Shown: positions 9,031-38,119 of the stretch, in pieces | Layout of the letters: every line of letters begins with the position of its first letter | Numbering within the stretch: position 1 is the stretch's first letter | From: an uncultured Candidatus Saccharibacteria bacterium | Lineage (GTDB): Bacteria > Patescibacteriota > Minisyncoccia > Phycocordibacterales > UBA5272 | Assembly (NCBI GenBank): GCA_964544935.1 | Contig: CAZJDZ010000006.1 | Span: 1-58,116, forward strand | Reading direction: 5' to 3' | Length of the DNA: 58,116 nt | Position numbers and translations under genes: made by a program | Notes under the pieces: model-generated | Database searches by the model: none | What the model saw: only the letters and a program-made list of their open reading frames with translations | What the model was told of the DNA's origin: nothing

Positions 9031-9035
9031 CATCT

Positions 9036-9857: not shown

Positions 9858-10820
9858 ATGTCTTCACATTCCATTATTTTGCCATCAAAACCAAGAATTG
9901 TTAAAGAAGATGCTACTTCAGGTGTGTACGAAATCGACGGTCTCTACCCAGGATACGGTCATACTCTCGGCAACTCACTTCGTCGTATTATTCTCTCATC
10001 TATTCCTGGTGCTTCTATTACAGCACTCTCTATCGACGGTGTAAAGCATGAGTTCTCATCAATTGATGGTATTAAGGAAGATGTTATTGCAATTATTCTT
10101 AATCTTAAGAAGACTCGTTTTAAACTCCATGGAGATGACGCTCAGAAGGCAACTCTTCATATCAAAGGAGCAAAGACAATCACTGCAGCTAATATCTCAG
10201 CACCTTCACAGCTTGAAGTTATGAACGGAGATCAGTACATTTGTGAATCAACAGCAAAAGATATTGATATCGCAGTTGAAATCACTGTAGAAAAAGGTCT
10301 TGGGTATGTTCCTCGTGAAGTTCTTCAGAAGGAAAAAGCTGACATTGGCACTATCTTCCTTGATGCATCATTTACACCTATTCGTCGCGCAAGTTACGAA
10401 GTAGAAAACATGCGTGTTGGTGATCGTACTGACCATAACCGTCTTCGTGTTACTATTGAAACTGACGGAACTATTACTCCTCACGAAGCACTTGAGAGTT
10501 CAATTCATACAATGATCACACAGCTCCAATCTATCGTTGGATTCCGTGCTGAGGTAATCGATATGCCAAAGGAAGCTACTCCAGTATCTAGTGCTGAACT
10601 AGAATCACTTGATATTACTGATGCAAGTAAAGTAAAGATTGAAGACCTAGGTCTCTCAACTCGTACAGAGAACGCACTTGTAACAGCAGCTATTCGTACA
10701 GCAGGAGGACTTGCTCGCAAGTCAGAAGAAGATCTTCTCTCTCTTGATGGACTTGGAGAAAAAGGAATTACAGAAATTAAAAAAGCATTAGTAAATCTTG
10801 GACTTGAACTTAAGGCCTAG
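9858..10820 (+). CDS. rpoA: DNA-directed RNA polymerase subunit alpha
   Basis: N-terminal domain [28 protein letters not shown]. C-terminal HhH domain [26 protein letters not shown]. Confidence 0.95.
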   Translation: [320 protein letters not shown]

Positions 10821-13083: not shown

Positions 13084-14964
13084 ATGGCAAAAATAATTGG
13101 AATCGACCTTGGAACAACCAACTCAGCTGTTGCTATCATTGAAGCAGGACAGCCAAAAATAATTGAGAACCTTGAAGGAAATCGCACAACACCATCTGTT
13201 GTTTCTGTGAACAAGAATGGTGAGCGTTCTGTTGGGCAGATAGCAAAGCGCCAAGCTGTAACTAACCCAAAAGACACTGTCTATGGAGTAAAGCGCTTCA
13301 TGGGGCATTCATTTTCTGACAAAGAAGTTCAGGCTGATATTCCACGTGTAGCATACACGATCAAGAAAGGAGATAACGACGGGGTGCTAATCACTCTTGG
13401 TGGTAAAGATTCTCGCCCAGAAGAAATTAGTGCGATGATTCTTCAGAAGATCAAGGCAGATGTAGAAGCGAAGCTTGGTGAGACTATCACAGAGGCTATC
13501 ATCACTGTACCTGCGTATTTTAATGATACACAGCGTCAGGCAACAATCGACGCGGGTAAGATCGCAGGACTTGATGTTAAACGTATTATTCCTGAACCTA
13601 CTGCAGCTGCGCTCGCGTATGGATTTAACAGTACAAAGAATGAAAAAATTGCTGTGTACGATTTTGGAGGAGGAACATTTGATATTTCTATTCTTGAAGT
13701 AGGTGATGGTGTTGTTGAAGTAAAGTCAGTTGACGGTGACTCACACCTTGGAGGCCGTGACATTGACCAGAAGTTCGTACAGTACATCGCTGCAGAATTT
13801 AAGAAAGATCAAGGTATTGATATCACTACTGATGCACTCGCTCTTCAGCGTCTTGATGAAGCTGCAGAAAAAGCAAAGCATGAGCTCTCAACTCAGATGG
13901 AAACAGAAATCAATCTTCCGTTCATCACATCAGGTGTAGATGGACCAAAGCACTTGGTTGTAAAAGTTACACGAGCAAAGCTTGAAGAAATTTCAAAAGA
14001 ATTTGTTGACCGTTCAATTGAGATTGCAAAGCGCGCAATCGCAGCATCTCCATTTAAGAAAGAAGAAATCAACGAAATTATTATGGTTGGAGGACAGACT
14101 CGTATGCCTATGATTGTTGAAGCCGTGAAAGAGCTCTTCGGTAAAGAACCTAACCGATCAATCAATCCTGACGAAGTGGTTGCTCTTGGTGCAGCAGTTC
14201 AAGCTGGTGTTCTACAGGGGGATGTGAAGGATGTTCTTCTTCTTGATGTGATTCCACTTTCACTTGGTATCGAGACTATGGGAGGGGTTGCAACAAAGCT
14301 TGTAGAAAAGAACATGACTATTCCAACATCGAAGTCTCAGATTTTCTCAACTGCAGCTGACAATCAGACATCTGTAGAAATTCATATCACACAAGGTGAG
14401 CGTCCACTTGCAGCTGATAATAAGTCTCTTGGAAGATTTATTCTCGATGGTATTCCACCAGCACCACGTGGAGTTCCACAAGTAGAAGTTACCTTTGATG
14501 TGGACGCTAACGGTATTCTTAATGTGACCGCAAAAGATAAAACATCAGGCAAAGTACAAACAATTCGTATCGAAGCATCATCTGGTCTAAGTGATGAAGA
14601 CATCAAACGTATGCAGTCTGATGCAGAAGCTCATGCTGATGAAGATAAGAAGAAGATGGAACTTATCGAAGCAAAGAATATTGCTGACTCAATGGTGCAC
14701 ACTGCAGAGAAGTCACTCAAAGATGCGGGAGATAAAATAACTCCTGAACTACGCAAGGAGATTGAAGATGCTATCAATGATGTGAAGACTGCACGCGGTG
14801 GAGATAATATCGACACTATCAAAAAATCATCTGAGACTCTTTCAGACAAGATGATGAAGATTGGTGAGGCGATGAAGACTGCAAATGATAACGCATCACA
14901 AGCTGAGCAACCAGCACCAGAAGCTACTGCTGAAGAAAAGAAAGAAGGGGAAGCAACTGCATAG
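13084..14964 (+). CDS. dnaK: Molecular chaperone DnaK (Hsp70)
   Basis: [26 protein letters not shown] and [10 protein letters not shown] signatures over a full-length 626 aa. Confidence 0.97.
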
Positions 14965-20472: not shown

Positions 20473-23400
20473 TTGGTTGCACTTCATGCTATAATCTTTT
20501 CAATTACATATTTTATGAAGTATATTGCTTTTGGTTTGAACGTAATCAAAGTATCTTTTTCAAAAGCGGTCTATTTTGCCTCTCGTTCTCTCAAGAAAAG
20601 AAAAGCACTCATGGTGAGTGCTTTTCTTATTTTCCTTCAATTAGCAACACCACTTACATCAGCTATCGTGTATGCAGCTGCAACTGCTTCTAATGATGTA
20701 GGTTCAAGTGCTGCACTTGATCCAGTAGGGAACAAAGCAACCCGTCTTCAGACGCAAGGCTCACAAGGAGTTGATCAATCAACAGGGGCACTTACCTACA
20801 GTTATCCTCTTACAATTCTTGCTGGAAGAAATGGAATGGCCCCATCACTAGCACTTTCATACAACTCTCAGAACAATGATACAGGATGGTTTGGGTACGG
20901 ATGGGTGATGAGTGTTCCATATATTGAAAGAACTACAAAATTTGGTACAGATAAACTCTATGCAACAAGCACATCGTTTGTATCGTCACTCCACGGAGAA
21001 CTTATTTCGACTAATGGTCTCAATTATGAACAAAAAATAGATGATGGTTCGTATGCAAACTACACGCTTACAGGCAGTAGTTGGCAAATGACTGACCGTG
21101 ATGGAACTACGTATTACTTTGGTAATTCGTACGTTAGTCGAGTTCAGAACGATGCAGGGACAAAGATTGGACGATGGTATTTGACGGAAGTCAGGGATAA
21201 GTTTGGTAACGGAATTGTTTATGACTATGTAAAAGATTCTGGAACCGTATATCCAAGCACTATTTCATATACAGAACATGCCCTTGCCCATCCCCTTAAC
21301 TTGGTTACTTTTAATCTTGAAAGTAAGAATGACAATCTTACAAGTTACAAATATGGTTTTAAGACTATTGATACCAAGCGAGTATCATATATAAAAGTAT
21401 CTACAAATGGCAGGGATAATGCATACTTTTCATTTACGTATGGTACAGGTGCAAATGGAGTACGTTCCCTTCTTCAGGGTGTTGAAGAAAAGCACTTGAG
21501 TACCAATGATGACTGGACGGTGTTACCAAAAACAACCTTTGAATACGAGAACTCATCAAGTACATTTTCTGGAACTATTTCAAATACTCAGAATCCATAT
21601 GGAACTGGAGCCAGTCTTAATACAGTTATTGATACTAATAACGATGGTATTTTGGACTTATATAATGCAGGAGATGGATTTTTCCCTGTTGATATAAATG
21701 GAGACTATAAGAAGGATTTAATGCAGAGTGATGTTTTTTATCTGTATGCATTTTCCGATGGAAGAAATATTATTTTTAAATATAACCAAGGGGGAAGTTT
21801 TTATACAAGAACTTTTAAATTGCCTGGAAGTACCGGAAGATATTCTCTTTCCTCCGGAGAAATAATACCCCCTGTTCGTTATAAAATGGATCCTTATATC
21901 CTGACTCCACAGCAAGAATCTGCTATTGCCGATGTGAATGGTGATGGGTTTGATGATGTTATTTATAACGATCCACTTGGACAATATGGGGTTGCAATAA
22001 ATACAACAAATAATACATTTGATTATAGTACTTCAAGTAGTCTTACTTTTTCTATTTCTAATAGTCAAGTAGCGGATGTTAATGGGGATGGGCTTCAAGA
22101 CTTGATCGTAAAGTGGTACACGTCAACCTCTACACTTTTTGGAGTTTTTCTTAATGATGGAATTAAATATCAACCTATAGCAGATTTTGTATATGATGCA
22201 AAAGTTGCCTCTACAACACCCGATTCTGGTGTTCGTTTTGTTGATATTAATAATGATGGATTAGTGGATATCATTAGGTCGTATACCTCATCATATTCAA
22301 AATTTTCTGGTCCAAGTTGCAGTCTTCCATATACATATATTCCTAGTGATAGTGGTCCAGCAGCTCAAACTGTTAATGATGCACTCTTTAACACTGGGTC
22401 GAGTTTTGTAGCTGCTTCTACCACACTTTCTGGGTATGTGCTTTCATACAGTAGTTGTAATGTTGGAGGTGCCCAAGGGTATATTGTAACTAATGCAACG
22501 AAGGAATATGACGTCAACGGTGATCTAACAACAGACTATGATGGAGCTACCAACAACACAAAGAAACAAGATGTTCTTAAAAAAGTGAATACCTCACTTG
22601 GTTCTACACTTGATGTTTCATACAGATGGACTACACAGTCAGGACTCAATCCGACACTCCCAGTTCCAATGTATATTGTGGCCACAACAACTGAGAAGCT
22701 TTCAGTATCTGATGCTAATCCTCATAGTGTTGGATACAACTTTTACAATGGTCAGATGTATTTTGATGCTACAAGTCCTCGAGATCATAAGTTTGCAGGC
22801 TTTGGTAAAGTCGAGGTGATAGATGGCAAAAATAAAACAACAACTTACTACCATCAAGGAAATGGTGATGATTACACGACTGGTGAAAAAGGGGATTCAT
22901 ATTACAACATTGGTCGTGCATACAGAACAGACACATTTGATCTTTCGAGTGGCTCTTCTACTCTAGTTAATAAAAATCTTTCACTCTATACAACATACAG
23001 CTATGCATCTTCTTCGTTTACATATCTTGATTCACAGATAGTAAATGCATATAACAGTGATGGATCATTCGTATCCTCAGGAAGTAAGAGTCTCTATGAT
23101 GAAACCAAGCGCCTCATCAAGACATCGTATAAGTATGGTGATATCGAACCATTTGTTTCTTTTGCATCCTCAACGATTACTGACAGAGAAACTGATCTCA
23201 TTACTACGCAGTATCAGTACTCAAACACTCGCCCCCAAAGACTTGTAAAAGAAGTAAGCACTGACTACGCAGGTATATCTATTGGCACAACTAACTATTA
23301 CTATGACGGTCTTCCTTTTGGGCTGGTTGATAAGGGTGCGCTCACCAGTACCACAAATACAGTCTATAATCCTAACGGAACAATTAATTCTACGAGTACC

Positions 23401-26400
23401 ACGCAAATATCGTATGATCCTACAGGAAATGCTATTCAAAGCATAGATGGATTAAACAATAAAACAAAAGTCACCTATGATAGCTCATACACGTTTCCAA
23501 TAACGAAAGTTGATGCACTTAATGGCACTACAACTCTCACATATGATCCATACACTCTTAATCTTCTTACTTCAAAAGGACCAGACGGTATCACGTCAGT
23601 AAAAGAAACAGATGGATTAGGGAAAGTAACACGTTCATATCTTATTAACACAGCAGGGGGCATCACAGATGAAGTAAGAACTAACTATGTCTATGGAAAT
23701 GGAATTACAGTGTATGGAAGACGATTAGGAAATCTTGGGACAAGCGCGCGAACACTTGAAGTGTATGATAGTTATGGAAGACTTATTCAGTCAAAAAAAG
23801 AAACACAGCCAGATACTTTTTCTACTCAAGATACTAAGTACGATGCAAATAGTAATGTCATATCAACTTCTCTCCCATATACAACAACAGGATATGGATT
23901 TACTACTGATACACCTTCAAATGGGAGTAGTATATACACCTATGATGGTCTTGGAAGAGTGATATCAAAATCTGTTTTTGGTACAACGCTCACATACCAG
24001 TATGGTGCGAGAAATTTGACGGTCTATGATAATGCTTCAACTCAGCACAAAAAGTTCTACGCTTATGACGCAAACAGTAATCTCTCTCAAGTAAGAGAAT
24101 ATAACGCAACCAGTACTTACACCACAAACTACAACTATACTCCTCAAAATAAACTCACTAGTATCACTGATGCAAACGGTAACACTCGTAACTTTGCATA
24201 TCTTTCAAATGGGCTTCTCATATATCAGGAAGATCCTCATCCAACAACTGATACCACGTTTACTACATACTCATACACATACAATGTACTAGGTAATCTC
24301 CTTTCCAAGGTTGGATCCCTCGGTACTACTACCTATGCCTATGATGCATTAAGTCGCCCGACAACACGAACACTTCTTGATAGTGTATCTGGCACAAGCA
24401 CTGTTACCTTTGCCTACAACGGATGTTCAAATAACTACCTTGCACCATGTACTGTTGCAAGAGATACAACATCTTCCACAACATTTACATATGACACTTC
24501 CGGTAAGGTAAGTAATGAAACTATGGTTATAGGTTCTAAGAGTTTTGCACGATCGTATACCTATGATATTTATGGTAATCCAGAAACTATTACCTATCCT
24601 GATAGTGGTAAGGTTACCTACACCTACACACTTGATGGCAAACAGTCGACACTTACGTATCTATCTCCAAACGGAACAACCAAAAATATTGTTACCGGCT
24701 CAACATACAATTCACTCAATTCACTCGCATCACTAACCTATGGAAATGGGGTTCAATTCTGTAATACTTACACCAGTACGTCAGCAGATGGGGTTATTAG
24801 TCCAAAACTTGCAAAATCAGTATACCTTTTTAACTCCACAGGATGTTCACCAGTAGTTAATCAGGTAGAACTTTATAAAGACGAATTCACTTATAAAGAT
24901 GCTCTTACTCCAAGTAGTATTCTTTCTACTTACAAAGATATAGTAGGAACTACACATACAAAGAGTGACACACTTACCTATGATAATCTCGTACGACTTA
25001 CACAAGTGTCCACTTCATATGATGGTGGAAGCGCCGTCGTAGATACTCTCGTGTATGATCCAATCGGAAATATTTTAAAAGAAAATGATGTTTTGTATCG
25101 CTATAGTCAAGATGGAACACAGAATGCTCATGCAGCTACTTCCATTGGAGGCTACCACATTACCTATGATGGACAAGGGAACAAGACTCAGGCAGGGGAC
25201 AATGTCTACACATGGAATGCGCTCAATCAGATGCTCACCGCATCAAGCTCAAATGGTCTTGAAACATATACCTATGACGAAAATGGTGAAAGGATTAAGA
25301 AAGTTGTAACTGCTACTACTGTTGTCTCACAGAGAGCAACTCCAGCCACAAGTTCCTCAACATCCCCAGCTTTCACTCAAGGAGATCTTCTAACACCATT
25401 TGCAACATCGAGTACATACATTGCGACGTCTACATACAACACACTCAGTTCACTTGCACTACTCGATAAAGGGACACTCACAACACTTGTCGATAAGTAC
25501 TACGGCTCACCTTTCATTAGTAAATTTTGTGCAACTGAAATCACATCACTTGATCGTCAAATTTGTACCGCATCAACAACACGACAACTAATTGGTAACG
25601 ATATTAATAACAGAAGTACAAGTACAATTGCAACATATGGTCTTGTTGTCGATCTAATCAAAATTGTAACAGGGGAGTACCTTATCCCTACTACCTATGT
25701 GGGACTTGCTACAAGTAGTATCGCAGTCAGTCTTACTGGTAACTTGAAAGTAAAAACCGCAACAATTACCTCATTCAACACCTTCGTGGCTACAGGTATT
25801 GTGGTCCCAATGAGTGAGTATGAAGACCTTCCATATGTTTCTAGTAGTACCTACTCATCACTTACTCAAGTTGGTTTAACAGATACAAGTAAAGTGCGAG
25901 CACTTCTTGTACTTACTGGGTGTACATCACTCACCACTTCTTGCGCTACAGCAAAGAAAGTAGTCTTTGAAAAGTTTTATAAAGAAAATGGTTACTTGTT
26001 AGCCGATAAAGCACTTGAAGAAATATGGTATGTCTTTGCAGTAAAGGCACGCCTCCCTTCTAACTCTGGAGAGTTTACTTCAACTTCAACTATACTTGGA
26101 AATATAACAGTGCCAAATATTACAGGAATAGGTACGAGCACAGCTACATCTACATATTATTCAGGACTCTATTTCACTACAGAATATACTAATCAGAATC
26201 TAAGTGAGCCACGACTTACCTACTTCAATATACTTCCATATTATGTAACTCAGTCAGCATTTACAGAGCTACAACAAGCAGGGATTACTCAGGTGACACT
26301 TGAAAATTATCAATCACTCATTACAGATTTATTCAGTGTCAAACTTGCATCGTCGACAGAGTATATGGTGGCGCTTAAGGATTTTGCTTTGTATGATAAA

Positions 26401-29400
26401 AAAGTAACCCTGTCCCAAAATGCCCTTAAGGAGCTCTATCTTGTATCTCTAGGTGCGGCAAGTATTCCAAATAATCTAACTGACTATATATCTAATGCAA
26501 CGTTTGATCTTACGGGCTACTTGAGTACAAATAGCTATCAATATAATCCTACATTGGGCACATGGTTCCTATATGGATCTTCGGTTTGTAACGCAGGAGC
26601 ATTTGAATATTATGGGTCAATTGCAGTTACTCGATGTATAGTAACTAATTCATCGTTTACGCTACCTGTAGCTACAAGTTCTACTGTCAGCTATATTTTA
26701 TCAACTACAATTCCTCCTCAACCAGTAGAAAATCCACTGATTGTTGGTAAATCTTCAAGAGGGACAGTGGAGTTACGACTTACATCTTCAAGTAGTCTTG
26801 CTTATCTTTATGATAATCAATATTCAACAACAATTGCAAATGATGGGAGTAAATTAGAAGTAGATATTACACCAGTAGTTGTTGCAAGACTTGCTGGATC
26901 AACAACCACAGCACTTATTGTTAACCCTAGTGAATATGGACCTTATGCATACTCTTGGCAAGCAACGTCTGTTACTCTAAAAGCATATGTTGCCACTCCT
27001 AAACTCACTCTTGCTTCTACAACACTTGTCTCAGGGGTAACGAATGCTACTTCATCTATCTTTACTCCAGCAATTGATAGTGCTATCTCTGCATACTTTG
27101 GTGAAATCTACGATAGTTCTAGTCTCGTAACCGTGAGCACTTCAACAGCTACAGTTATTTCACCAGAAGCATATGGAGAATTTGCTTCTACAACACTGAG
27201 AGATGTATATGACATCTCTCAGGTATTTCTAGCAACCAGTACCCCATGGTGTGAAGCGAATGCATCCACCACTGAGTGTGATAAACAGGCGCGTATATCA
27301 TTCTTTAGAAATGTCATCAGTAATCTTACAGGGTTTGTTCCTAGTCAAGCGGGTGTAGAAGAATTCTGGATGGTCCATAAAGGGATACTTACTCTACCTA
27401 ATATTAATTATGCTTCAACAACAGGCACCACCACAATCCCAGGATTCTTTGCTGCAAGCACTACATTAAATGCCTATCCAAATGCCTATGTGTACAGTGT
27501 TGATCCAGGGCACTATGACTATCAATATGTCGCAACTACAACTGCTAGTACAACAGTAACCATTCTTAATACGCAAGCAGGTGGTACGACATTTACAGCA
27601 GCTACAGGATCCCAGTACATCCTTTCCTTCTGTGGTTCGTATTGTAATACTCCAACATTCAATGGGGTGTCCATGACAAACTTGGTTACGAGGGCTAGTC
27701 CAAATACTAATTCAGATATAAGGGTCTTTGGTTTAGCAACAACAACATCACAGTCAGTTCCTGTAACAAGTAATTGTGGTACTAACTGTGGCAATGCAAC
27801 AGATCATTATAGATGGGTGTCTTTAAGTGGAGTTAGTACATCTTCATATTATTACGATACACAAAGTGCCGCGGGAAACAATGCTTCTTCCTTGTCAGTA
27901 ACTGAAAATCTTCAAGATAAAAATAATCTTACAATTATATCTTCCAACATCTCTACTGTAGGCACAAGTGGAGGAACAGGTTCTTCACCACTTGTAGCAA
28001 CCACATCAAGTAGACTTTGGTATCACTATGCAACTACTACAGGCAACTTCACCTATTCTATAACTGGACTAGGTAGTACAGATGCAGAAATCGCCAGTAT
28101 TCAAATTAATCATAACCCAAATGATACAGTAACTCCTGGATACTATACTGCAAACTATATTGCAACAACAACGCTTTATTATATAGCGACAACTAGCCAG
28201 CAATTGCCAGGTATCTTTACAACTGTACTTGCTACGTATCCGGTATTCTCTCGATCAAGTTTACCAACATCACTTTCAACATCTACTGTTACAAATATTT
28301 CTACAAGTACTGTACCTGGGCACTGGGCAACTGAATGGGATTCACTGGACTATATTGCCACCTCAACTGCAACTTCTACAGGTGGAACCATAACTAATCT
28401 TGGTTCTGTTTACTTCCATACATTTACCGCAACCGGAACATTTTCAACAAGTAACTATTTCCCTGCAAAAGTCCTTGTGCTAGGTGGAGGAGGTGCATCA
28501 AATGGAGGCCCTGGAGGAGGTGGAGGGCAGTATGTTTATAACGGAGCATTTGCAATGGCTTCTTCCTCGTATTCAGTCATAGTTGGTGCTGCTGGTGCTA
28601 CGTCTAGCTTTGACACACTCATTGCTCCTAAAGGAGGAGATGGTGTTGGAGGAACTTTTACTGGAGGTTCAAGTATGACATATACAGGAGGAACAGGAGG
28701 AAGTAATGGAATGGGTGGTGGAGCAGGGGCTGCAGCTAATGGCTCTAATGGATCAGGTAATTTTGGAGGTGGAGGAGGAAATGGTTTTATTAATCCAATT
28801 CCAGGATCTACTCATGGTCAATACTCAGGGGGTAATTATTATCTTGGAGGTGGAGGTGGCGGATATGGAAATACCGGACATGCATCTGGTGGACTTGGTG
28901 GAGGAGGATTAGGTAATTATGGTGGAGCTGCAACTGCAAATTTTGGAGGTGGAGGCGGGTCATATTCATCTGGTAGTTCTGGTGTAGTTATTGTTAGCTA
29001 CGATAGTGTTGTTACGCCTGGATTTTGGCTTACCGTACACCACTCTTCCACTACTCCTGTGTATATTGCAACAACTACGCTCACTCAAGTAGTAACGAAT
29101 CTTTCTCTGGTACCAGCAGGGCTATTGTCTGATCTCCAGTACAATGCTACGTACTCAACTTCTACATTTGCACAAGCGACAAGTACAAAAGCAGTGAGCG
29201 AAGATACCTACAACGAGCTTCTTCGTACTCCTATTCGCCTCAACTCTGATGTCGATACTATCTTTGATTACGCACTTCCATTTGCAACAAGTACCTGTCC
29301 CGGACAAGCAGCAACGAGTTCTTGCGTGGTAACTGCACAAAAATCAAAAGTAAAGGATGTAGTCAGTCAGTTCTCTGGCTTCGTACTCTCTGATGCTGCA

Positions 29401-31371
29401 GCAGAAGAACTTTACAGAGTTAAGACAGGTGAACTCTCGATTATCCCTATATCACTATCAACTGCCACTCTCTCTACTTCATCACAATCAGTTACAGTAC
29501 CTCTTGATCCTTCTGTAACATACACAACCTTTACGCAAGGAACATCTACTCCAACAAAAGGTGATTGTTCCTTCGGTACCCAAGGTGGAGTGACTGATAG
29601 TTGCTATATCGAGCTTCCATACATCAACTCTCCTATCTCATCACTCCAGATGACCTATCAAGCACTTCCAAAGACGCTTGGAACAAGTACCATGGCTACA
29701 ACTTTGGTTTCAAGCTATGCAACAACAACTGCAGGTACATCTACTCCTACAATTATTACAAGCACAACAACAGGACTGCTCAATGGTACAAAAGTAGGTA
29801 CTTCTACATTCTTCTTTGATCTCGGTAGTCTCTATCAGCTCTATATCAGTACTTTATCTCCTACACTACAGTTGTATCCAGACGGAGTAGGTACATCATC
29901 TAAGATCTATTCATTAGGCACTACAACACTTAACCTCACTCGTTCTATCCTCATCCCTCGTATTACCTATACACCAGCTACTATGCCAACAAGTGCATTT
30001 AGTAGGACTTCCATCCCATCCTTAGCTACAACAACTGCAACTACTACCGTTGATATGACATCCACCCCAGCACTTACCTTCTCTGCTACCTTCCTCTCTC
30101 CCGTAGGTCCTATAGCTTCCGGTACCACAATATATGCAGGATACATAGTAGACACTACTCCAATTAATCTCCCAGTTCCTCCACAGCAGTCTCTCCCTCC
30201 AGTAAGTTATCCATTCGCTACAAGTACTGCAACCACTACGGTAAACACACTTACTGTATCTACCACCACTTCATACACGGTATATTCTCCATTCACTAAC
30301 TACACTGACGATACTGCACGAGATATACGTACTACCTACTTCACTCTAAATGGAGTACTTGTAGGAGCATATACCTACAAGAAGAATAATGAATCAACTA
30401 CAGGTAAAGTAACCTATATACACTCTAACTATTTAGGTACTCCTGTAATAGAGACAGATGAGAAGGGGGATATTGTAGAGATGGATATTACGGACGTGTT
30501 TGGGAATTATGTACAAAGGGATCAAAGGAATGATAATGCGTATCATAATAAAGGGTATACAAGTCATGAGTATGATGATGTAACAGGACTTACGTATGCG
30601 CATGCAAGATACTTGGATACAAAGACACATAGTTTCTTGAGTGTTGATCCACTTAACTATAGTCTTCCGCAGAGTTATCTTCTTGACCCACAGCAGATGA
30701 ATAGCTATGCGTATGCGAGAAACAATCCAATTGTGTATACAGACCCGACAGGGCAATACACACAAAACTATGGTCCAGTAGGTGATCTTCCAAAATCACC
30801 GACATATCCACAGAACTATGGATATTCAGGTTTCAAAGGTCCACAAATATCATCTTACACTGGGATGAATCTAAGGAGTCAAACTACTATCACATTCAGA
30901 AAATCAGATGTGGATGATCTTGTTCTGTCTGGGTATGGGCAAGCAGCAAAAGATGATTGGCTGGCAGGGAATTATGGGTATGCGATTGGTCTTGGTTTCC
31001 TAGGTGGTACAGCCGCTATTTCGAGTGTAGTTAGTTCACCAGAGAGGGTGGGTGTAAACATAACAGCAAAGGTTTTAAGAGGGGCAAACAATCCAATAAC
31101 TAGAAGTACTGCCGCGTATGGTCGTGATGCACATAAGTTTTATAAGATAGGTATTGCAAATGGAGAAACTCTTGTTAAAGAATTTAATAAAATTCCTGGG
31201 ATAAGGCCTGATTTTGTTGACTTAGAAAATAAGATTATTTATGAATTAAAACCAGATAATTTGAGAGCTATAAAGCAAGGTGAAAAACAGCTCAATACGT
31301 ATATTAAAGCTTTCAAAGATGCTGGGTACGGTGATTTTAAGGGTGTTTTACAAACATATCAAAGAGAGTGA
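20473..31371 (+). CDS. Giant secreted TcB/TcC-like RHS (YD-repeat) polymorphic toxin, 3,632 aa (true start possibly the ATG at 20515)
   Basis: Signal-like KKRKALMVSAFLIFLQLATPLTSAIVYAAA. SpvB/TcdB N-terminal motif STGALTYSYPL...GRNGMAPSLALSYNS...GYGWVMSVPYIERTTKFG. FG-GAP/VCBS-like DxNxDGxxD repeats and dozens of YD repeats (YTYDGLGRV, YAYDANSNL, YTYDENGERIKK). RHS core end ARYLD...SVDP...NSYAYARNNPIVYTDPTGQ. Confidence 0.9.
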   Translation: MVALHAIIFSITYFMKYIAFGLNVIKVSFSKAVYFASRSLKKRKALMVSAFLIFLQLATPLTSAIVYAAATASNDVGSSAALDPVGNKATRLQTQGSQGVDQSTGALTYSYPLTILAGRNGMAPSLALSYNSQNNDTGWFGYGWVMSVPYIERTTKFGTDKLYATSTSFVSSLHGELISTNGLNYEQKIDDGSYANYTLTGSSWQMTDRDGTTYYFGNSYVSRVQNDAGTKIGRWYLTEVRDKFGNGIVYDYVKDSGTVYPSTISYTEHALAHPLNLVTFNLESKNDNLTSYKYGFKTIDTKRVSYIKVSTNGRDNAYFSFTYGTGANGVRSLLQGVEEKHLSTNDDWTVLPKTTFEYENSSSTFSGTISNTQNPYGTGASLNTVIDTNNDGILDLYNAGDGFFPVDINGDYKKDLMQSDVFYLYAFSDGRNIIFKYNQGGSFYTRTFKLPGSTGRYSLSSGEIIPPVRYKMDPYILTPQQESAIADVNGDGFDDVIYNDPLGQYGVAINTTNNTFDYSTSSSLTFSISNSQVADVNGDGLQDLIVKWYTSTSTLFGVFLNDGIKYQPIADFVYDAKVASTTPDSGVRFVDINNDGLVDIIRSYTSSYSKFSGPSCSLPYTYIPSDSGPAAQTVNDALFNTGSSFVAASTTLSGYVLSYSSCNVGGAQGYIVTNATKEYDVNGDLTTDYDGATNNTKKQDVLKKVNTSLGSTLDVSYRWTTQSGLNPTLPVPMYIVATTTEKLSVSDANPHSVGYNFYNGQMYFDATSPRDHKFAGFGKVEVIDGKNKTTTYYHQGNGDDYTTGEKGDSYYNIGRAYRTDTFDLSSGSSTLVNKNLSLYTTYSYASSSFTYLDSQIVNAYNSDGSFVSSGSKSLYDETKRLIKTSYKYGDIEPFVSFASSTITDRETDLITTQYQYSNTRPQRLVKEVSTDYAGISIGTTNYYYDGLPFGLVDKGALTSTTNTVYNPNGTINSTSTTQISYDPTGNAIQSIDGLNNKTKVTYDSSYTFPITKVDALNGTTTLTYDPYTLNLLTSKGPDGITSVKETDGLGKVTRSYLINTAGGITDEVRTNYVYGNGITVYGRRLGNLGTSARTLEVYDSYGRLIQSKKETQPDTFSTQDTKYDANSNVISTSLPYTTTGYGFTTDTPSNGSSIYTYDGLGRVISKSVFGTTLTYQYGARNLTVYDNASTQHKKFYAYDANSNLSQVREYNATSTYTTNYNYTPQNKLTSITDANGNTRNFAYLSNGLLIYQEDPHPTTDTTFTTYSYTYNVLGNLLSKVGSLGTTTYAYDALSRPTTRTLLDSVSGTSTVTFAYNGCSNNYLAPCTVARDTTSSTTFTYDTSGKVSNETMVIGSKSFARSYTYDIYGNPETITYPDSGKVTYTYTLDGKQSTLTYLSPNGTTKNIVTGSTYNSLNSLASLTYGNGVQFCNTYTSTSADGVISPKLAKSVYLFNSTGCSPVVNQVELYKDEFTYKDALTPSSILSTYKDIVGTTHTKSDTLTYDNLVRLTQVSTSYDGGSAVVDTLVYDPIGNILKENDVLYRYSQDGTQNAHAATSIGGYHITYDGQGNKTQAGDNVYTWNALNQMLTASSSNGLETYTYDENGERIKKVVTATTVVSQRATPATSSSTSPAFTQGDLLTPFATSSTYIATSTYNTLSSLALLDKGTLTTLVDKYYGSPFISKFCATEITSLDRQICTASTTRQLIGNDINNRSTSTIATYGLVVDLIKIVTGEYLIPTTYVGLATSSIAVSLTGNLKVKTATITSFNTFVATGIVVPMSEYEDLPYVSSSTYSSLTQVGLTDTSKVRALLVLTGCTSLTTSCATAKKVVFEKFYKENGYLLADKALEEIWYVFAVKARLPSNSGEFTSTSTILGNITVPNITGIGTSTATSTYYSGLYFTTEYTNQNLSEPRLTYFNILPYYVTQSAFTELQQAGITQVTLENYQSLITDLFSVKLASSTEYMVALKDFALYDKKVTLSQNALKELYLVSLGAASIPNNLTDYISNATFDLTGYLSTNSYQYNPTLGTWFLYGSSVCNAGAFEYYGSIAVTRCIVTNSSFTLPVATSSTVSYILSTTIPPQPVENPLIVGKSSRGTVELRLTSSSSLAYLYDNQYSTTIANDGSKLEVDITPVVVARLAGSTTTALIVNPSEYGPYAYSWQATSVTLKAYVATPKLTLASTTLVSGVTNATSSIFTPAIDSAISAYFGEIYDSSSLVTVSTSTATVISPEAYGEFASTTLRDVYDISQVFLATSTPWCEANASTTECDKQARISFFRNVISNLTGFVPSQAGVEEFWMVHKGILTLPNINYASTTGTTTIPGFFAASTTLNAYPNAYVYSVDPGHYDYQYVATTTASTTVTILNTQAGGTTFTAATGSQYILSFCGSYCNTPTFNGVSMTNLVTRASPNTNSDIRVFGLATTTSQSVPVTSNCGTNCGNATDHYRWVSLSGVSTSSYYYDTQSAAGNNASSLSVTENLQDKNNLTIISSNISTVGTSGGTGSSPLVATTSSRLWYHYATTTGNFTYSITGLGSTDAEIASIQINHNPNDTVTPGYYTANYIATTTLYYIATTSQQLPGIFTTVLATYPVFSRSSLPTSLSTSTVTNISTSTVPGHWATEWDSLDYIATSTATSTGGTITNLGSVYFHTFTATGTFSTSNYFPAKVLVLGGGGASNGGPGGGGGQYVYNGAFAMASSSYSVIVGAAGATSSFDTLIAPKGGDGVGGTFTGGSSMTYTGGTGGSNGMGGGAGAAANGSNGSGNFGGGGGNGFINPIPGSTHGQYSGGNYYLGGGGGGYGNTGHASGGLGGGGLGNYGGAATANFGGGGGSYSSGSSGVVIVSYDSVVTPGFWLTVHHSSTTPVYIATTTLTQVVTNLSLVPAGLLSDLQYNATYSTSTFAQATSTKAVSEDTYNELLRTPIRLNSDVDTIFDYALPFATSTCPGQAATSSCVVTAQKSKVKDVVSQFSGFVLSDAAAEELYRVKTGELSIIPISLSTATLSTSSQSVTVPLDPSVTYTTFTQGTSTPTKGDCSFGTQGGVTDSCYIELPYINSPISSLQMTYQALPKTLGTSTMATTLVSSYATTTAGTSTPTIITSTTTGLLNGTKVGTSTFFFDLGSLYQLYISTLSPTLQLYPDGVGTSSKIYSLGTTTLNLTRSILIPRITYTPATMPTSAFSRTSIPSLATTTATTTVDMTSTPALTFSATFLSPVGPIASGTTIYAGYIVDTTPINLPVPPQQSLPPVSYPFATSTATTTVNTLTVSTTTSYTVYSPFTNYTDDTARDIRTTYFTLNGVLVGAYTYKKNNESTTGKVTYIHSNYLGTPVIETDEKGDIVEMDITDVFGNYVQRDQRNDNAYHNKGYTSHEYDDVTGLTYAHARYLDTKTHSFLSVDPLNYSLPQSYLLDPQQMNSYAYARNNPIVYTDPTGQYTQNYGPVGDLPKSPTYPQNYGYSGFKGPQISSYTGMNLRSQTTITFRKSDVDDLVLSGYGQAAKDDWLAGNYGYAIGLGFLGGTAAISSVVSSPERVGVNITAKVLRGANNPITRSTAAYGRDAHKFYKIGIANGETLVKEFNKIPGIRPDFVDLENKIIYELKPDNLRAIKQGEKQLNTYIKAFKDAGYGDFKGVLQTYQRE
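20770..21480 (+). other. SpvB/TcdB-N-like domain segment of the giant protein
   Basis: QSTGALTYSYPLTILAGRNGMAPSLALSYNSQNNDTGWFGYGWVMSVPYIERTTKFGTDKLY. Confidence 0.75.
21630..22545 (+). other. FG-GAP/VCBS-like calcium-binding repeat segment
   Basis: Repeated DTNNDGILDL, DINGDYKKDL, ADVNGDGFDDVI, ADVNGDGLQDLIV, VDINNDGLVDII and YDVNGDLTTD. Confidence 0.7.
23200..25305 (+). other. RHS/YD-repeat shell segment
   Basis: Successive YD-type repeats from YQYSNTRPQRL to TYTYDENGERIKK. Confidence 0.85.
25310..30330 (+). other. Roughly 5-kb Ser/Thr-rich, repeat-bearing insertion between the last YD repeat and the RHS core
   Basis: There are no YD motifs here. It contains five copies of an approximately 85-aa module, four PG[YHF][YW]...Y[IV]ATT motifs and a Gly-rich block (28468-29005). 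Confidence 0.7.
30173..30482 (+). repeat. Direct repeat copy 1 (inside the RHS gene, pre-core segment)
   Basis: About 310 nt, highly similar to 32031-32339. The 3' two-thirds are nearly identical and the 5' third is more diverged. Confidence 0.85.
30331..30756 (+). other. RHS repeat-associated core
   Basis: TYIHSNYLGTPVIETDEKGDIV...GYTSHEYDDVTGLTYAHARYLDTKTHSFLSVDP...YAYARNNPIVYTDPTGQ. Confidence 0.85.
30757..31368 (+). other. C-terminal variable toxin module, PD-(D/E)xK nuclease-like
   Basis: It follows the DPTGQ boundary. The tail reads GIRPDFVDLENKIIYELKPDN...GEKQLNTYI, matching a D...E.K restriction-endonuclease-fold pattern. Confidence 0.55.
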
Positions 31372-31422: not shown

Positions 31423-31839
31423 ATGAAAATAACAAAGTTAAATAATTTTTTAGTGAATCTTGGTTTTACTAAAAAAGGCAATAATTACAAAAAAAAAATA
31501 AATGACATCAATTATATAATAAACTTACAAAAGAGTAATTACTCTCCAGAGTGGTATATTAATTGTAGTTTAGATTTTGATGAGGGCAAAAAGGGTAATA
31601 TTTGGATGCGTGTTGGTGATAAAAATAAAATTTTCGAAAAAGATCTTTTTGATTTAATGAATGAAAATAAAGTTGATTTCGTTGTTGAAAAAATTAATGA
31701 AAAGTTTATTATACCTTTCGTTAATATTGGTGATGATAAAAATAAAATAAGAGAGTATGTTTTAACAAAACCAGGTGTTATTGTTAATGAATGGGCTAAA
31801 GATTATTTAGATATAAAATCAGATAGTTTAGTTTTTTAA
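31423..31839 (+). CDS. Candidate cognate immunity protein (138 aa)
   Basis: Starts 51 nt after the toxin stop on the same strand and is strikingly AT-rich. The N-terminus FLVNLGFTKKGNNYKK...YIINLQKSNYS...YINCSL recalls DUF4304-type immunity proteins (from memory, unverified). Confidence 0.6.
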   Translation: MKITKLNNFLVNLGFTKKGNNYKKKINDINYIINLQKSNYSPEWYINCSLDFDEGKKGNIWMRVGDKNKIFEKDLFDLMNENKVDFVVEKINEKFIIPFVNIGDDKNKIREYVLTKPGVIVNEWAKDYLDIKSDSLVF

Positions 31840-32016: not shown

Positions 32017-32373
32017 GTGATTGGAGTCTCAGTCCCTCCACAACAATCCCTTCCTCCAATTAGTTACCCATTCGCTACAAGTACAGCAACAACTACAGTT
32101 AATACATTAACAGTATCTACTACTACTTCATATACCGTATATTCTCCATTCACTAACTACACTGACGATACTACACGAGATATACGTACTACCTACTTCA
32201 CCTTTAATGGAATGCTTGTAGGAGCATATACCTACAAGAAGAATAATGAATCAACCACAGGTAAAGTAACCTATATACACTCTAACTACCTAGGTACTCC
32301 TGTAATAGAGACAGATGAGAAGGGGGATATAGTGGAGACGATACAAAAGAAAACACCTCTTAGATATATCTAA
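32017..32373 (+). pseudogene. Orphan RHS pre-core fragment (truncated duplicate of giant-gene codons about 3235-3336)
   Basis: It encodes VPPQQSLPPISYPFATSTATTTVNTL...YIHSNYLGTPVIETDEKGDIVE. It then runs into terminator-encoded residues (TIQKKTPLRYI) with no core end or toxin. Confidence 0.75.
32031..32339 (+). repeat. Direct repeat copy 2 (orphan fragment)
   Basis: See copy 1. Aligned by eye base-for-base with 30173-30482. Confidence 0.85.
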
Positions 32374-32402: not shown

Positions 32403-33641
32403 TTATTTTTTACAATATTCTTCTTTTAGTTTTGCAAGTGTTATTGGTCCAAGGTTTCCTGTTGGGGAAACACCTTTACTTCTTTGATATGCCATAACAG
32501 CTCTTTGTGTTTGTGGTCCAAAGACACCGTTAGCTTGAGGAGTGAATAAACCTCTGTCTTTTAAGAATTGCTGAAGGATAGTTATATATTCTCGTTTTGA
32601 AGCTAATCTATCTCCTCGTTTGAGTGTTGTAAGCGCAGGAATAATACAACGAGGTGTGGTTGTTGCAGTATTTTCTTTTGTTGGGTCAGTAGTAGTGAGT
32701 TCTTTTTGATAATTTGTACAGTCTGCTGTTCTTGTTACCTTACAAGCAAATGATGTGTCGATAAAATTAGTCATGTGCTCAAATATTGTAAGTCCAGTCT
32801 CATGTACTTTCCATTTATATATACCGTCTCCTGCTAATCCATGACCTGATCCGGGAGCAGTAATTCTTTGATACGGAACATTTGCTGCAGATGCTTGGCT
32901 TACAAGACGGTCTGACATAAGATATGGAACGACAGTATCTGCTGTACCGTGAATGATGAGAGCATTTGCATCACCAGAAGAAAGGTATTGTTTTTTATTT
33001 GGGATACCTCCTGAGATCTCGATAATTCCAAGTGGGTTTTCACTCTTATTAAAAACATAATCTGCAAGGTATGCAAGATTGATTGTTGTATATGCCCCAG
33101 CTGATCCACCTTTAATAAACCAGTGAGTGTCGATTTTTCCCATAAATTCTTTTGCAACAAATTCTTTTGCTTTGATTGCATCTTCAAGCGCAGCAAGTGC
33201 AGCGTAGGTCTGATCACGCGGAGTTCCTTCTTCTAGAAATTCTGTAACGAACTCTTGAGCTTTTGTATCACTCAAGGATTCTATAATAGGCTTACTATCT
33301 GACTGAAGGAGTCTGTAATTGATAGCAAAAAGGGCGTACCCTGCTTTTGCAAAATTTGTTTTGTTTTCGATGCCGCTTGATTTGTCTCCTTGAACAAAAC
33401 CTCCTCCATGAATGTCTCCAACAGGAATAGGGAGTTTGTCTGATCCATTTTTACAATCTACAGGTAAATATGCATCAAGATAAAGAGGTATGGTTGATGT
33501 GCCATTTTTTGTGAGAACAAGCCCTGTCCCGTATTGTATATTTTCTACAATACGATAAGAACACTCATCTATTGCACTAGCAGATATATAAGGAAAACTA
33601 AGTGTCGCAGCTACAAGTAAAGTAATTTTTTTAATATTCAT
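32403..33641 (-). CDS. Secreted alpha/beta-hydrolase (esterase/lipase-type) fused to a C-terminal peptidoglycan-binding domain
   Basis: Signal peptide MNIKKITLLVAATLSFPYISASA. HGGGF oxyanion motif (DIHGGGFVQGD) and nucleophile elbow GGSAGA. PG_binding_1-like tail LQQFLKDRGLFTPQANGVFGPQTQRAVMAYQRSKGVSPTGNLGPITLAKL. Confidence 0.75.
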   Translation of the reverse strand: MNIKKITLLVAATLSFPYISASAIDECSYRIVENIQYGTGLVLTKNGTSTIPLYLDAYLPVDCKNGSDKLPIPVGDIHGGGFVQGDKSSGIENKTNFAKAGYALFAINYRLLQSDSKPIIESLSDTKAQEFVTEFLEEGTPRDQTYAALAALEDAIKAKEFVAKEFMGKIDTHWFIKGGSAGAYTTINLAYLADYVFNKSENPLGIIEISGGIPNKKQYLSSGDANALIIHGTADTVVPYLMSDRLVSQASAANVPYQRITAPGSGHGLAGDGIYKWKVHETGLTIFEHMTNFIDTSFACKVTRTADCTNYQKELTTTDPTKENTATTTPRCIIPALTTLKRGDRLASKREYITILQQFLKDRGLFTPQANGVFGPQTQRAVMAYQRSKGVSPTGNLGPITLAKLKEEYCKK

Positions 33642-36456: not shown

Positions 36457-36882
36457 ATGAAAGAATTTTTTGTAGGCCTTATGATTCCCCTTCTTTCGAT
36501 TGATGTAACAGCACAAGCCAGAAAGTGCCCACCAGAAGCAATTCTCGAAGCTCGCTGTCATCAGGTTCCAGAACAACAGATGCAACCGCTTCCAGAAAAA
36601 AAGAAACAAAAAAGGGTTGTTGCTGTCGGTGAGTTCATGCCTGGAGAAGGCTGTCTCGCAGGGTTCAGACGGCTCGGGTATACGGTCACCGTTGCTCAGT
36701 GTCAGAAAGCTGCCAAAGAAAGTTCACTCGGAGTGCTATGGGTCGAAGATCCCAAAAAACCTTCCCAACCAGATACACTTGTTGTTGACGTTCAGCCTGG
36801 AGAACCTTTTGTCGTTCTTGAGGCAAGAGGAGTCAAAGCAACCAAAATCAAGCTGTACAAGAGGCCGAAGAGCCCCTCGTAA
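36457..36882 (+). CDS. Small secreted Cys-containing protein (141 aa), visibly more GC-rich than its neighbours
   Basis: AGAGGA RBS at 36446 with the ATG at 36457. Signal-like MKEFFVGLMIPLLSIDVTAQA and four Cys. The longer listed ORF start (36358) would include the aspS terminator. Confidence 0.55.
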   Translation: MKEFFVGLMIPLLSIDVTAQARKCPPEAILEARCHQVPEQQMQPLPEKKKQKRVVAVGEFMPGEGCLAGFRRLGYTVTVAQCQKAAKESSLGVLWVEDPKKPSQPDTLVVDVQPGEPFVVLEARGVKATKIKLYKRPKSPS

Positions 36883-36889
36883 GTCAACC

Positions 36890-36928
36890 TTGCCGCTACA
36901 GAATACAACTGTGGCGGCAAACTTTTTA
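36890..36928 (+). terminator. Rho-independent terminator
   Basis: Stem ttgccgctacag / ctgtggcggcaa (one G-U pair) followed by actttttat. Confidence 0.55.
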
Positions 36929-36952
36929 TGGTATTATACATATATACTTACA

Positions 36953-38119
36953 ATGAAAAAATATGTAGCATTTATATTTTTAATATGTTTTTCTCTACAA
37001 ACTGCAACTGCAGTTACTGTGACGACTTTTGACAAAGCTATATGGATACCATATTGGAGAAAGACAGAAGGGGCAAGTACAACACTTCAGAATCTAAATA
37101 CACTCACACAGATCAGCCCTTTTGCTTTTGAGTTACAAAGTGACGGAAGTATCAAGAACGCACTGAGACTAGAAGCAGAACCATGGACAACACTCATAGC
37201 AGAGGCAAAGAAAAAAAATCAACCTGGACGGCCTGCGATGGGAATAAAAATATACCCAAGTATTCTGTCGTACCCTCAAAATGAAACTGCAAAGTATGAA
37301 TTCTGGCTTCTCATGGCTCAACGCGCGAGAAGAGCAGCTCATGTAAAAGAGATTGTTGCGCTTGTGAAGAAATATAATGTTGACGGTATTGATATTGACT
37401 ATGAGAATAAGAGTGCAGAGACACGACCTTACTTTTCTGCATTTTTGAAAGAACTTTCGCTTGCACTTCATAAAGAAAAGAAGCAGCTTATCTGTACTAT
37501 AGAGGCCCGTACACCTCCTGAGAGTAGATACGCTACGACTTCAAAAGAAATTCTCGCAAGAGTCGAATACTCAAATGACTACAAAGCGATCGGTACCGTG
37601 TGTGATCAAGTGCGTATCATGGCGTATGATCAAGCAGGAGATGACCGCAAGCTTGTTAACCAAAACGCAGCTCTTGGAAATACGTACAAACCTGTTGCAG
37701 ATATCGATTGGGTAGAAAAAATCGCAACAGTTGCACTCCGTGATATCCCTGCAAAAAAAATAATTCTCGGTATTCCAACATATGGGTATAAATATGAAAT
37801 CAAATCTCAACCGGGAACCTCTACAGTTACCTATAGTCGTATAGGTTCGATGAACTTTAATTATGCAGATGCGCTTGCAAAGAGTTTGAATATTACACCT
37901 ACCCGCAATTCAGCAGGCGAACTTAGTTTTACGTATTCTACATCAACAGATATAGAGGGTAACCCACTTGGAAGCACTAAGCAGTACCTTGTCTGGTACT
38001 CTGATGCTCAAGCTATTGCTGATAAAGTGCGAATCGCAAAATTATACAAGTTAGGTGGTGTTGTTATTTTCAAAATAGATGGAGGTAACGACCCAAAGGT
38101 TTGGCAAGTGCTTAAGTAA
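36953..38119 (+). CDS. Secreted glycoside hydrolase family 18 protein (chitinase / YaaH-like)
   Basis: Signal peptide MKKYVAFIFLICFSLQTATA and the catalytic DxxDxDxE motif (VDGIDIDYEN). The ATG at 36953 is preferred over the listed 36617 start. Confidence 0.8.
   Translation: MKKYVAFIFLICFSLQTATAVTVTTFDKAIWIPYWRKTEGASTTLQNLNTLTQISPFAFELQSDGSIKNALRLEAEPWTTLIAEAKKKNQPGRPAMGIKIYPSILSYPQNETAKYEFWLLMAQRARRAAHVKEIVALVKKYNVDGIDIDYENKSAETRPYFSAFLKELSLALHKEKKQLICTIEARTPPESRYATTSKEILARVEYSNDYKAIGTVCDQVRIMAYDQAGDDRKLVNQNAALGNTYKPVADIDWVEKIATVALRDIPAKKIILGIPTYGYKYEIKSQPGTSTVTYSRIGSMNFNYADALAKSLNITPTRNSAGELSFTYSTSTDIEGNPLGSTKQYLVWYSDAQAIADKVRIAKLYKLGGVVIFKIDGGNDPKVWQVLK

Follow-up and report, generated by a model that had tools for sequence, protein, structure and literature searches.

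Rearrangement hotspot (RHS) cocoons are a widespread form of toxin packaging, yet little is understood of how stand-alone cocoons locate their targets and gain entry. The cocoon cavity of toxin complex (Tc) toxins takes roughly 30-kDa unfolded cargo, and this cargo leaves through the propeller, the domain that serves as exit gate. Shells that carry additional domains have also been described. The Rhs/YD (tyrosine-aspartate) repeats of the mosquito protein SGS1 harbour inserted domains of carbohydrate-binding module (CBM), lectin and wedge type, which have been read as receptor domains (PMC9935623), and the soil genome of 'T. rhizospherense', a member of the Saccharibacteria, encodes an RHS toxin of 2,487 amino acids (aa) with PA14 and galactose-binding lectin-type domains (PMC6031116). 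Here we describe an RHS polymorphic-toxin gene of an uncultured Candidatus Saccharibacteria bacterium in which one hairpin turn of the shell holds ~1,675 aa, an insert that we interpret with moderate confidence as an exposed target-recognition arm. The gene lies in a window of 58,116 nucleotides (nt), the whole stretch of DNA analysed (contig CAZJDZ010000006.1, assembly GCA_964544935.1), and consists of the following regions, all read as one open reading frame (ORF).

20473-31371 (+): whole RHS polymorphic-toxin gene, a single unbroken ORF of 3,632 codons
20779-25302 (+): TcB/TcC-like shell with SpvB N-terminal domain, FG-GAP propeller and YD repeats (Pfam, TIGR01643, similarity to Rhs structures)
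25309-30330 (+): insert, aa 1613-3286, in a single beta-hairpin turn within the last YD repeat (splice alignment to 8h8a)
30331-30756 (+): hairpin closing strand and Rhs-associated core, YIHSNYLGTPV … RYLD … SVDP … NNPIVYTDPTGQ (TIGR03696)
30757-31368 (+): variable C-terminal toxin, aa 3429-3632, with Tox-REase-9 at aa 3543-3629 (Pfam, 71.6 bits)

Domain matches identify the product as a single-chain TcB/TcC-type cocoon toxin with a predicted cargo of restriction-endonuclease fold. Pfam recognizes the SpvB N-terminal domain (aa 103-190, 57.3 bits) and an FG-GAP propeller at about aa 376-675 (FG-GAP_3, 30.5 bits), the pair of domains that marks Tc toxins. The RHS_repeat profile matches at 22.1 bits (cut-off 22), its strongest stretch in the whole-protein scan falling in the N-terminal part (aa 1270-1300), and TIGR01643 matches in three stretches at 32.5 bits (cut-off 15.8); in relatives the YD/RHS repeats score 37-99 bits. 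The shell sequence is similar to the Rhs structures 7q97 and 8h8a and to Tse5. The Rhs-associated core (TIGR03696, 50 bits, cut-off 32.5, aa 3341-3428) aligns with the same three proteins through RYLD…SVDP…NNPIVYTDPTGQ, fits a PxxxxDPxG end with two catalytic Asp, and is predicted to be both aspartyl autoprotease and plug. The toxin behind it is swapped for others in relatives, for example Tox-REase-7 or LHH. The protein belongs among the RHS polymorphic toxins by its YD repeats, its Rhs core and the variable toxin that follows this core at the C terminus.

The product also carries signals for export. The ORF is listed as starting with a TTG at 20473; the more likely start is an ATG in the same frame at 20515 (M15), ahead of the signal-like segment, and relatives of the gene begin with ATG. 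A Sec-type signal peptide is predicted at about aa 45-68, ending in …SAIVYA ahead of AATAS. In a Kyte-Doolittle (KD) scan the sole hydrophobic stretch of the protein was this N-terminal, signal-like segment (aa 45-70), and signal peptides with AxA sites are clear in relatives too.

The point of insertion was located by splicing. The last YD strand (TYTYDENGERIKK, aa 1598-1610, nt 25264-25302) is followed by the insert, and the chain picks up again with TTYFTLNGVLVGAYTY...VTYIHSNYLGTPV at aa 3287 (nt 30331). When aa 1617-3287 were removed and the joined sequence was searched against PDB sequences, it aligned to the solved Rhs protein 8h8a in one stretch spanning the junction, the 8h8a segment YEYDALGRRTKKITQNGITEFLWEGERLLGE pairing across it with YTYDENGERIKKVV on one side and TATTTYFTLNGVLVGA on the other. 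Consequently, these are two strands that in a canonical Rhs protein are joined by a turn of ~6 residues, compared with ~1,675 here, and the position between last YD repeat and core proposed in a sequence-only reading of this DNA is borne out. YD-like motifs number 0 in the insert and 8 in the N-terminal part, and Pfam finds no RHS_repeat when the pieces aa 1613-2222, 2323-2639 and 3003-3286 are searched individually; together with the predicted helical fold of its modules, these results agree with the earlier statement that the region is not made of diverged YD repeats. Both the splice test and the presence of Gly_rich_2 and LamG domains inside such inserts reveal non-YD domains within the YD-repeat region, the hallmark of SGS1-like shell decoration.

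The description of the insert as extremely Ser/Thr-rich holds in part: it is richer than the rest of the protein, but only moderately so (Ser+Thr 29.7% vs 24.3%). Its 16 Cys form 8 pairs with partners 4-16 residues apart, as fits an extracellular protein, and the KD scan detected no hydrophobic or amphipathic membrane segment in it. PFATS[ST] is found in both its first and its last segment. Note that GC skew is negative (-0.06 to -0.16) at 24000-30000, over the distal shell and the insert, and mostly positive in the rest of the window, a pattern that fits the C-rich Thr/Ser/Ala codon load rather than a strand switch.

The insert is built from helical modules, beta-rich spacers, short connectors and cassettes. 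Its elements are given below with the evidence for each, including their presence or absence in two relatives, P0001 and the allele L006.

25408-25710 (+): helical module copy 1, aa 1646-1746, Cys pair 1686/1698 (hidden Markov model, HMM)
25825-26079 (+): helical module copy 2, aa 1785-1869, Cys pair 1817/1824 (HMM)
26233-26490 (+): helical module copy 3, aa 1921-2006, without Cys pair (iterated HMM)
26491-27042 (+): beta-rich spacer 1, aa 2007-2190, Cys pair 2039/2055 (conserved in orthologues; low-confidence strands in an AlphaFold 2, AF2, model)
27145-27420 (+): helical module copy 4, aa 2225-2316, Cys pair 2260/2269 (the copy modelled with AF2)
27505-27543 (+): connector 1, PGHYDYQYVATTT (motif PG[YH][YW]..Y[IV]ATTT)
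27544-28122 (+): cassette A, aa about 2358-2550, Cys pairs 2387/2391 and 2435/2439 (single homologue; absent from L006)
28135-28368 (+): connectors 2 and 3, PGYYTANYIATTTLYYIATT … PGHWATEWDSLDYIATST, with a short linker between them (motif)
28393-29016 (+): Gly_rich_2 (PF21722) cassette, aa 2641-2848 (Pfam)
29017-29079 (+): connector 4, PGFWLTVHHSSTTPVYIATTT (motif)
29182-29466 (+): helical module copy 5, aa 2904-2998, Cys pair 2942/2951 (HMM, BLASTP)
29467-30330 (+): beta-rich spacer 2 and Ser/Thr-rich tail back to the shell, aa 2999-3286, Cys pair 3032/3044 (conserved in P0001 and L006)

The helical modules constitute, together with the beta-rich spacers, the scaffold of the insert. Five diverged copies of a module of ~85 aa had been proposed from the sequence alone, and an HMM built from copies 4 and 5, which match each other by BLASTP at E = 7e-12, finds exactly these five places and nothing else above noise. 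All five copies become significant once the HMM is iterated with orthologous copies. Whole-protein self-BLAST shows the identity match only; chunked BLAST and HMM iteration were the approaches that detected the copies. Module copies in the distant relatives P0006-P0010, which were not used for the profile, match at E = 1e-5 to 1e-14 per copy. Among 1.84 billion cluster representatives, a profile of 14 module copies matched 9 proteins, and the long matches among them are all giants of the SpvB-propeller-RHS type with 3,499-3,969 aa. An AF2 model of copy 4, based on an alignment of 38 sequences, has four helices (predicted local distance difference test, pLDDT, 82.5; predicted template-modelling score, pTM, 0.70), and copy 3 was the best-predicted part of a longer AF2 model (aa 1600-2330). 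Since the short N- and C-terminal strands pair in the model of copy 4, each module of ~90 aa would form a bead with adjacent ends. The module has no family in Pfam, NCBIfam or PHROGs and no PDB sequence match, and the best Foldseek results (E = 1.1, TM 0.43 in PDB; E = 0.5 in BFVD) provide no fold relative, in line with the earlier remark that it is not a described family. HMM iteration, the independent copies in P0006-P0010 and the AF2 model establish that the family is real, and this four-helix module represents a domain family that is new and confined to these proteins. At DNA level the only repeat in the insert is one 20-nt pair, which indicates that the modules are old rather than recent duplications.

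The connectors delimit the cassettes. The four PG[YHF][YW]…Y[IV]ATT pairs listed in the sequence-only reading were recovered at aa 2345, 2555, 2615 and 2849 (nt 27505, 28135, 28315 and 29017). Compared with shuffled sequences, the PG[YHF][YW] half occurs 5 times (0.07 expected) and the Y[IV]AT[ST] half 6 times (0.05 expected). These motifs fall exactly on cassette borders, and the cassettes of the related proteins P0001, P0002, P0004 and P0011 bear an equal connector. The 20-nt direct repeat, TATATTGCAACAAC(T/A)ACGCT at 28156-28175 and 29062-29081 (95% identical), codes for YIATTTL and flanks the linker and the Gly_rich_2 cassette; it could be a short recombination substrate or simply the conserved connector. 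The glycine-rich block between connectors 3 and 4, previously likened to domains of phage and tail-fibre-like proteins, proved to be a Pfam Gly_rich_2 domain, which scores 30.2 bits when aa 2633-2856 are searched alone (cut-off 24.3) and 22.5 bits within the whole protein. All six aligned homologues (6/6) match PF21722 (best E = 2e-21), the cassette is homologous to two copies in P0001 (99 bits), and PHROGs offers one unnamed family only. Its likeness to the polyglycine adhesins of gp38 type is only an analogy.

Neither beta-rich spacer matches a family, the Pfam search with aa 3003-3286 included, and spacers 1 and 2 lack detectable similarity to one another and to the spacers of P0006. A repeated unit made of a module and a homologous beta domain was considered and rejected: the spacer-1 HMM finds no other spacer, and hhalign comparisons of all spacer alignments gave probabilities <4%.

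Related loci were found in metagenome-assembled genomes (MAGs) of Candidatus Saccharibacteria, in one Candidatus Paceibacterota MAG and in metagenome contigs. Full-length relatives keep the order GERIK – m1 – m2 – m3 – spacer – (slot) – m4 – (slot) – m5 – spacer – (slot) – core, where m1 to m5 are the module copies. Slots contain LamG domains of lectin fold (1-3 copies), one or two Gly_rich_2 domains or a fourth cassette type (twice in P0004), or they are empty. A constant scaffold with variable cassettes is thus seen in 8 full-length and several partial relatives. From the GERIK motif to the core motif the distance is 1,630-1,907 aa in every full-length relative found. A spacing of this length among orthologues had been named beforehand as a point against an insertion; it is indeed normal in this small clade, which does not thereby make it the canonical RHS spacing. 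The insert is an old, conserved feature of the clade and is not peculiar to this gene. Intact ORFs coding for 3,499-3,969 aa come from independent samples (the five loci L003 and L005-L008, with 3,665-3,817 codons, plus P0005 and P0006). One relative, P0002, is encoded on a contig (L001, JGI Ga0558718_03406, 1-10000) where it adjoins phage-like genes, coding for a serine recombinase, a terminase-like protein, an N6/N4 methyltransferase, an S24 peptidase and an SNase.

L006 is a syntenic allele from another sample, with DNA 89-97% identical from the upstream symporter on and a protein 95-100% identical across the shell and all five modules. The ratio of nonsynonymous to synonymous divergence (dN/dS) between the alleles is 0.02-0.2 in the modules and 0.05 in the shell, and the scaffold is under purifying selection as strong as that of the shell. 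The alleles diverge in five places: the propeller, a patch in spacer 1, cassette A, a patch in spacer 2, and the toxin after the DPxG site. The FG-GAP propeller (21598-22497, aa 376-675) is the most divergent long stretch, with 36-76% identity and a synonymous divergence (dS) of ~1.4, and spacer 1 contains a mosaic hypervariable patch (aa 2076-2175) with 32-76% identity. Because dS is saturated (1.0-1.4) in the propeller and spacer-1 patches, these look imported by recombination, not mutated in place, and the propeller forms a second recombining region, which is probably exposed. Cassette A has been replaced outright in L006, where the adjacent slot has Gly_rich_2, and DNA similarity breaks at 27556-28162. 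Divergence of the toxin begins exactly after aa 3425.

Cassette A spans ~200 aa from connector 1 to connector 2. A search of 5.8 billion (5.8e9) proteins yielded one homologue, and there is no PDB sequence relative, even by profile search. The homologue, a 293-aa protein (L009:92-970, of which P0011 is a too-short call), is 44% identical over ~200 aa, with long exact blocks and the connector PGYY…Y.ATTT in both proteins; it also contains a 'DLVPA..DL' segment like that ahead of module 5. It is encoded on a 4-kb contig that is not closed (ENA ERZ27284535 k141_11145, 1-4062; GC 36%), together with an assembly ATPase of Zot type (28.6 bits), a replication protein of G2P type (REP_ORF2-G2P, 74 bits) and small coat-like ORFs, a content that makes the contig inovirus-like. 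The protein ends in a C-terminal hydrophobic anchor and is followed by a pVI-like ORF of 93 aa with multiple transmembrane segments. Viral contigs yielded no relatives of the insert, of this protein or of the cassette alignment, and tblastn gave no match in GenBank phages. Such a layout would be expected around an inovirus adsorption protein and suggests that cassette A is a receptor-binding unit exchanged between toxin and phage, and a cassette common to the toxin and an inovirus-like element hints at one receptor used by both.

The distinctive compositional signal of the insert is a tetrapeptide, A-[ST]-[ST]-[ST] (A[ST]3), and not Ser/Thr content as such. The motif, which usually follows a hydrophobic residue, occurs 35 times compared with 3.5 +/- 1.8 in shuffles, and its density is 21 per 1000 aa in the insert vs 0.5 per 1000 across 25 further ORFs of the window, a difference of ~40-fold. 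It is enriched in the inserts of 8/8 full-length homologues, its columns are conserved above their surroundings (75% vs 55% identity), and in the AF2 module model it sits in loops and helix N-caps. The motif may be a glycosylation sequon. The only other ORF among those checked with two A[ST]3 motifs codes for a 500-aa GH18 protein (36617-38119, +).

The insert is too large for the cavity of a cocoon, is disulfide-rich, belongs to a family that carries lectin- and adhesin-type domains, and combines a constrained scaffold with exchangeable cassettes; it is these properties that lead us to view it as an exposed, modular target-recognition arm that probably sets the target range of the toxin. According to this model, a Sec-exported single-chain cocoon would enclose the nuclease, which the Rhs core autoprotease would free. 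One hairpin turn of the last YD repeat, just before the core plug, has grown in this clade into an arm of ~1,700 aa, which would lie outside the cocoon. Five four-helix modules, described here as disulfide-stapled, and the beta-rich spacers would act as a scaffold that keeps the cassettes away from the shell, and the slots between scaffold elements, bounded by PG[YH][YW]…Y[IV]ATTT connectors, would hold interchangeable binding cassettes. By binding surface structures of target cells these cassettes would define the target range, while recombination would shuffle cassettes and toxin tips independently. The suggestion in the sequence-only reading that the region loops out of the cocoon for display or adhesion gains indirect support from the size of the arm relative to the cavity, the 8 Cys pairs, the signal peptide, and the LamG and Gly_rich_2 cassettes exchanged between close alleles. 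We further infer that target cells are what the cassettes recognize, and that this recognition is tied to delivery of the toxin.

A number of observations weigh against this proposal. The outward orientation of the arm would follow from size and analogy rather than from a structure, and the AF2 model of aa 1600-2330, computed with 6 orthologues, was poor (pLDDT 52, pTM 0.33) and too uncertain to use. The spacers and cassette A, about half of the insert, have no assigned fold; the Gly-rich domain has no PDB sequence relative even by profile, and the function of Gly_rich_2 is itself not established. The copy of the gene in this window has no LamG domain. The 293-aa homologue of cassette A may be an inovirus adsorption (pIII-like) protein, judging by gene order and its C-terminal anchor, and it has no obvious signal peptide and no homology to known pIII. 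Finally, no TcA-like partner or other delivery machinery was seen by which the nuclease would cross the target envelope.

Four other explanations of the insert were weighed, two of which concern the nature of the sequence. That it is a run of highly diverged YD repeats enlarging the shell could draw on the Ser/Thr/Tyr-rich composition of the whole protein and on the beta-rich spacers without assigned fold. However, the count of 0 vs 8 YD-like motifs, the piecewise searches without RHS_repeat, modules that are helical at pLDDT 82, Gly_rich_2 and LamG domains inside the region, and flanks that rejoin precisely on the canonical Rhs template refute this explanation for most of the region, and we find it hardly credible. 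An assembly chimera or decaying pseudogene might be suspected from P0002, whose gene is broken by a stop or frameshift in the Gly-rich domain near the contig end (17995/18003), but the intact ORFs of the same architecture on contigs from independent samples refute it, the low dN/dS of the modules (0.02-0.2) argues against decay, and its probability is negligible.

The other two concern function, and both are less well supported than a targeting arm. The arm could be a spacer or anchor, either a heavily O-glycosylated stalk or a module array that ties the cocoon to the envelope or S-layer of the producer, with A[ST]3 as sequon and cassette variation as phage or defence evasion. The ten-fold over-representation of A[ST]3, its enrichment in the inserts of all homologues, its conserved columns and its position in loops and helix N-caps are in keeping with this function, as are the lack of any other visible wall anchor in the RHS protein and a scaffold that is nearly invariant while its cassettes are not. 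Yet no protein O-glycosyltransferase is encoded near the gene, the neighbouring glycosyltransferases being MraY and MurG, and LamG and Gly_rich_2 cassettes in fast exchange suit ligand recognition better than passive spacing. We therefore judge this function rather unlikely as the explanation of the arm, noting that spacing or anchoring and targeting are mutually compatible. Alternatively, the arm could substitute for TcA as a self-contained penetration or translocation device for the nuclease. The 58-kb window holds no TcA-like gene, its next-largest ORFs (649, 626 and 620 aa) being far below TcA size, and no large part other than the arm lacks an explanation in a toxin with a cytoplasmic target. 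Against this, no membrane segment, hydrophobic or amphipathic, is present in the insert, the arm is placed at the plugged end beside the core when the cargo of Tc toxins leaves through the propeller, and its cassettes are of adhesin or lectin type, all of which make a TcA substitute very improbable. The target-recognition arm can also be cast in a bolder form, which we hold to be doubtful: a programmable targeting arm on the RHS cocoon of candidate-phyla epibionts, with its own scaffold family and plug-in receptor cassettes traded with filamentous phages, would provide a chassis re-aimable at host or rival surfaces, and hydrophobic-A-[ST]-[ST]-T would be an O-glycosylation or processing code of Patescibacteria surface proteins.

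Two features downstream of the gene belong to the toxin locus.

31423-31839 (+): candidate immunity gene, 138 aa, DUF4304, immediately behind the toxin gene (position)
32017-32373 (+): orphan copy of the insert tail and core start, a 118-codon ORF matching aa 3233-3336 (truncated; a near-copy that then diverges and stops)

From its position, the DUF4304 protein is the probable immunity protein for Tox-REase-9. Replacement of toxin tips at rhs loci usually leaves a truncated orphan behind, and the one at 32017-32373 looks like a leftover of such an event; L006 has a similar second copy at 14066-14644. The flanking genes are housekeeping genes (dnaK, dnaJ, a symporter and aminoacyl-tRNA synthetases). 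Next to the orphan, 32403-33641 (-) encodes a 411-aa protein with an esterase or S9-peptidase fold and a C-terminal PG_binding_1 peptidoglycan-binding domain, possibly a wall-acting enzyme beside the toxin locus. The 500-aa protein at 36617-38119 (+) has its GH18 (chitinase-family) domain in the C-terminal half and an unassigned N-terminal 200 aa. The Tc toxin of Yersinia is decorated by chitinases; we draw no link to the GH18 protein here.

The significance of the insert lies in the organisms that carry it and in its modularity. The Saccharibacteria and Paceibacterota relatives that carry these genes spend their lives attached to other bacteria, and few of the factors by which they attach and kill are known. 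In this locus the recognition part is apparently built into the shell of the toxin as exchangeable cassettes, which would make it a natural system for questions of target range, and the A[ST]3 motif may offer a handle on the modification of surface proteins in the phylum.

Comparison with known systems sets these proteins in context. They share with the TcB-TcC cocoon of Photorhabdus and Yersinia the SpvB domain, the FG-GAP propeller, the YD shell, the core autoprotease and a variable toxin inside. However, no TcA is encoded nearby, TcB and TcC are fused, and the protein is Sec-exported by a candidate-phyla bacterium; moreover, receptor binding of Tc toxins is carried out by TcA domains and not by an insert in the TcC half. 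SGS1 is the closest precedent, likewise a single-chain giant cocoon (~3,400 aa) with inserted domains and the aspartyl-protease site kept; in SGS1 the insertions form carbohydrate-binding and novel-fold domains on the outer side of the shell, where the present arm would also lie. Its inserts are several, of 140-240 aa each, and spread over the shell, whereas here a single hairpin holds ~1,700 aa with at least 10 domains. The present arm also has another module family and allele-exchanged cassettes, and the protein comes with a nuclease and a candidate immunity gene where SGS1 has membrane helices. Teneurins and bacterial teneurin-like proteins (9pt5, 9ifo), whose repeats are weakly similar to this protein, also combine a YD shell with extra interaction domains, but their decorations (NHL, FN-plug) are N-terminal to the shell, their toxin-like domain is outside, and they have no helical-module array. 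Bacillus WapA, one of the contact-dependent RHS toxins of Gram-positive bacteria, and the RHS toxin of 'T. rhizospherense' are likewise polymorphic toxins exported by the Sec route, and an immunity gene lies beside them, as the candidate does here. They are ~1,100 aa shorter, and no insert of several domains has been reported for them at the position between last YD repeat and core. Phage receptor-binding proteins, such as the glycine-rich adhesins of gp38 type and inovirus pIII, resemble the arm in having a conserved framework with exchangeable or hypervariable binding units; no sequence relation between Gly_rich_2 and gp38 was found, and the arm belongs to a toxin, not a virion. What sets these proteins apart from known shell-decorated RHS proteins is the accumulation of at least 10 domains in one hairpin, its position before the core plug, a new scaffold family, the swapping of cassettes, and candidate-phyla carriers.

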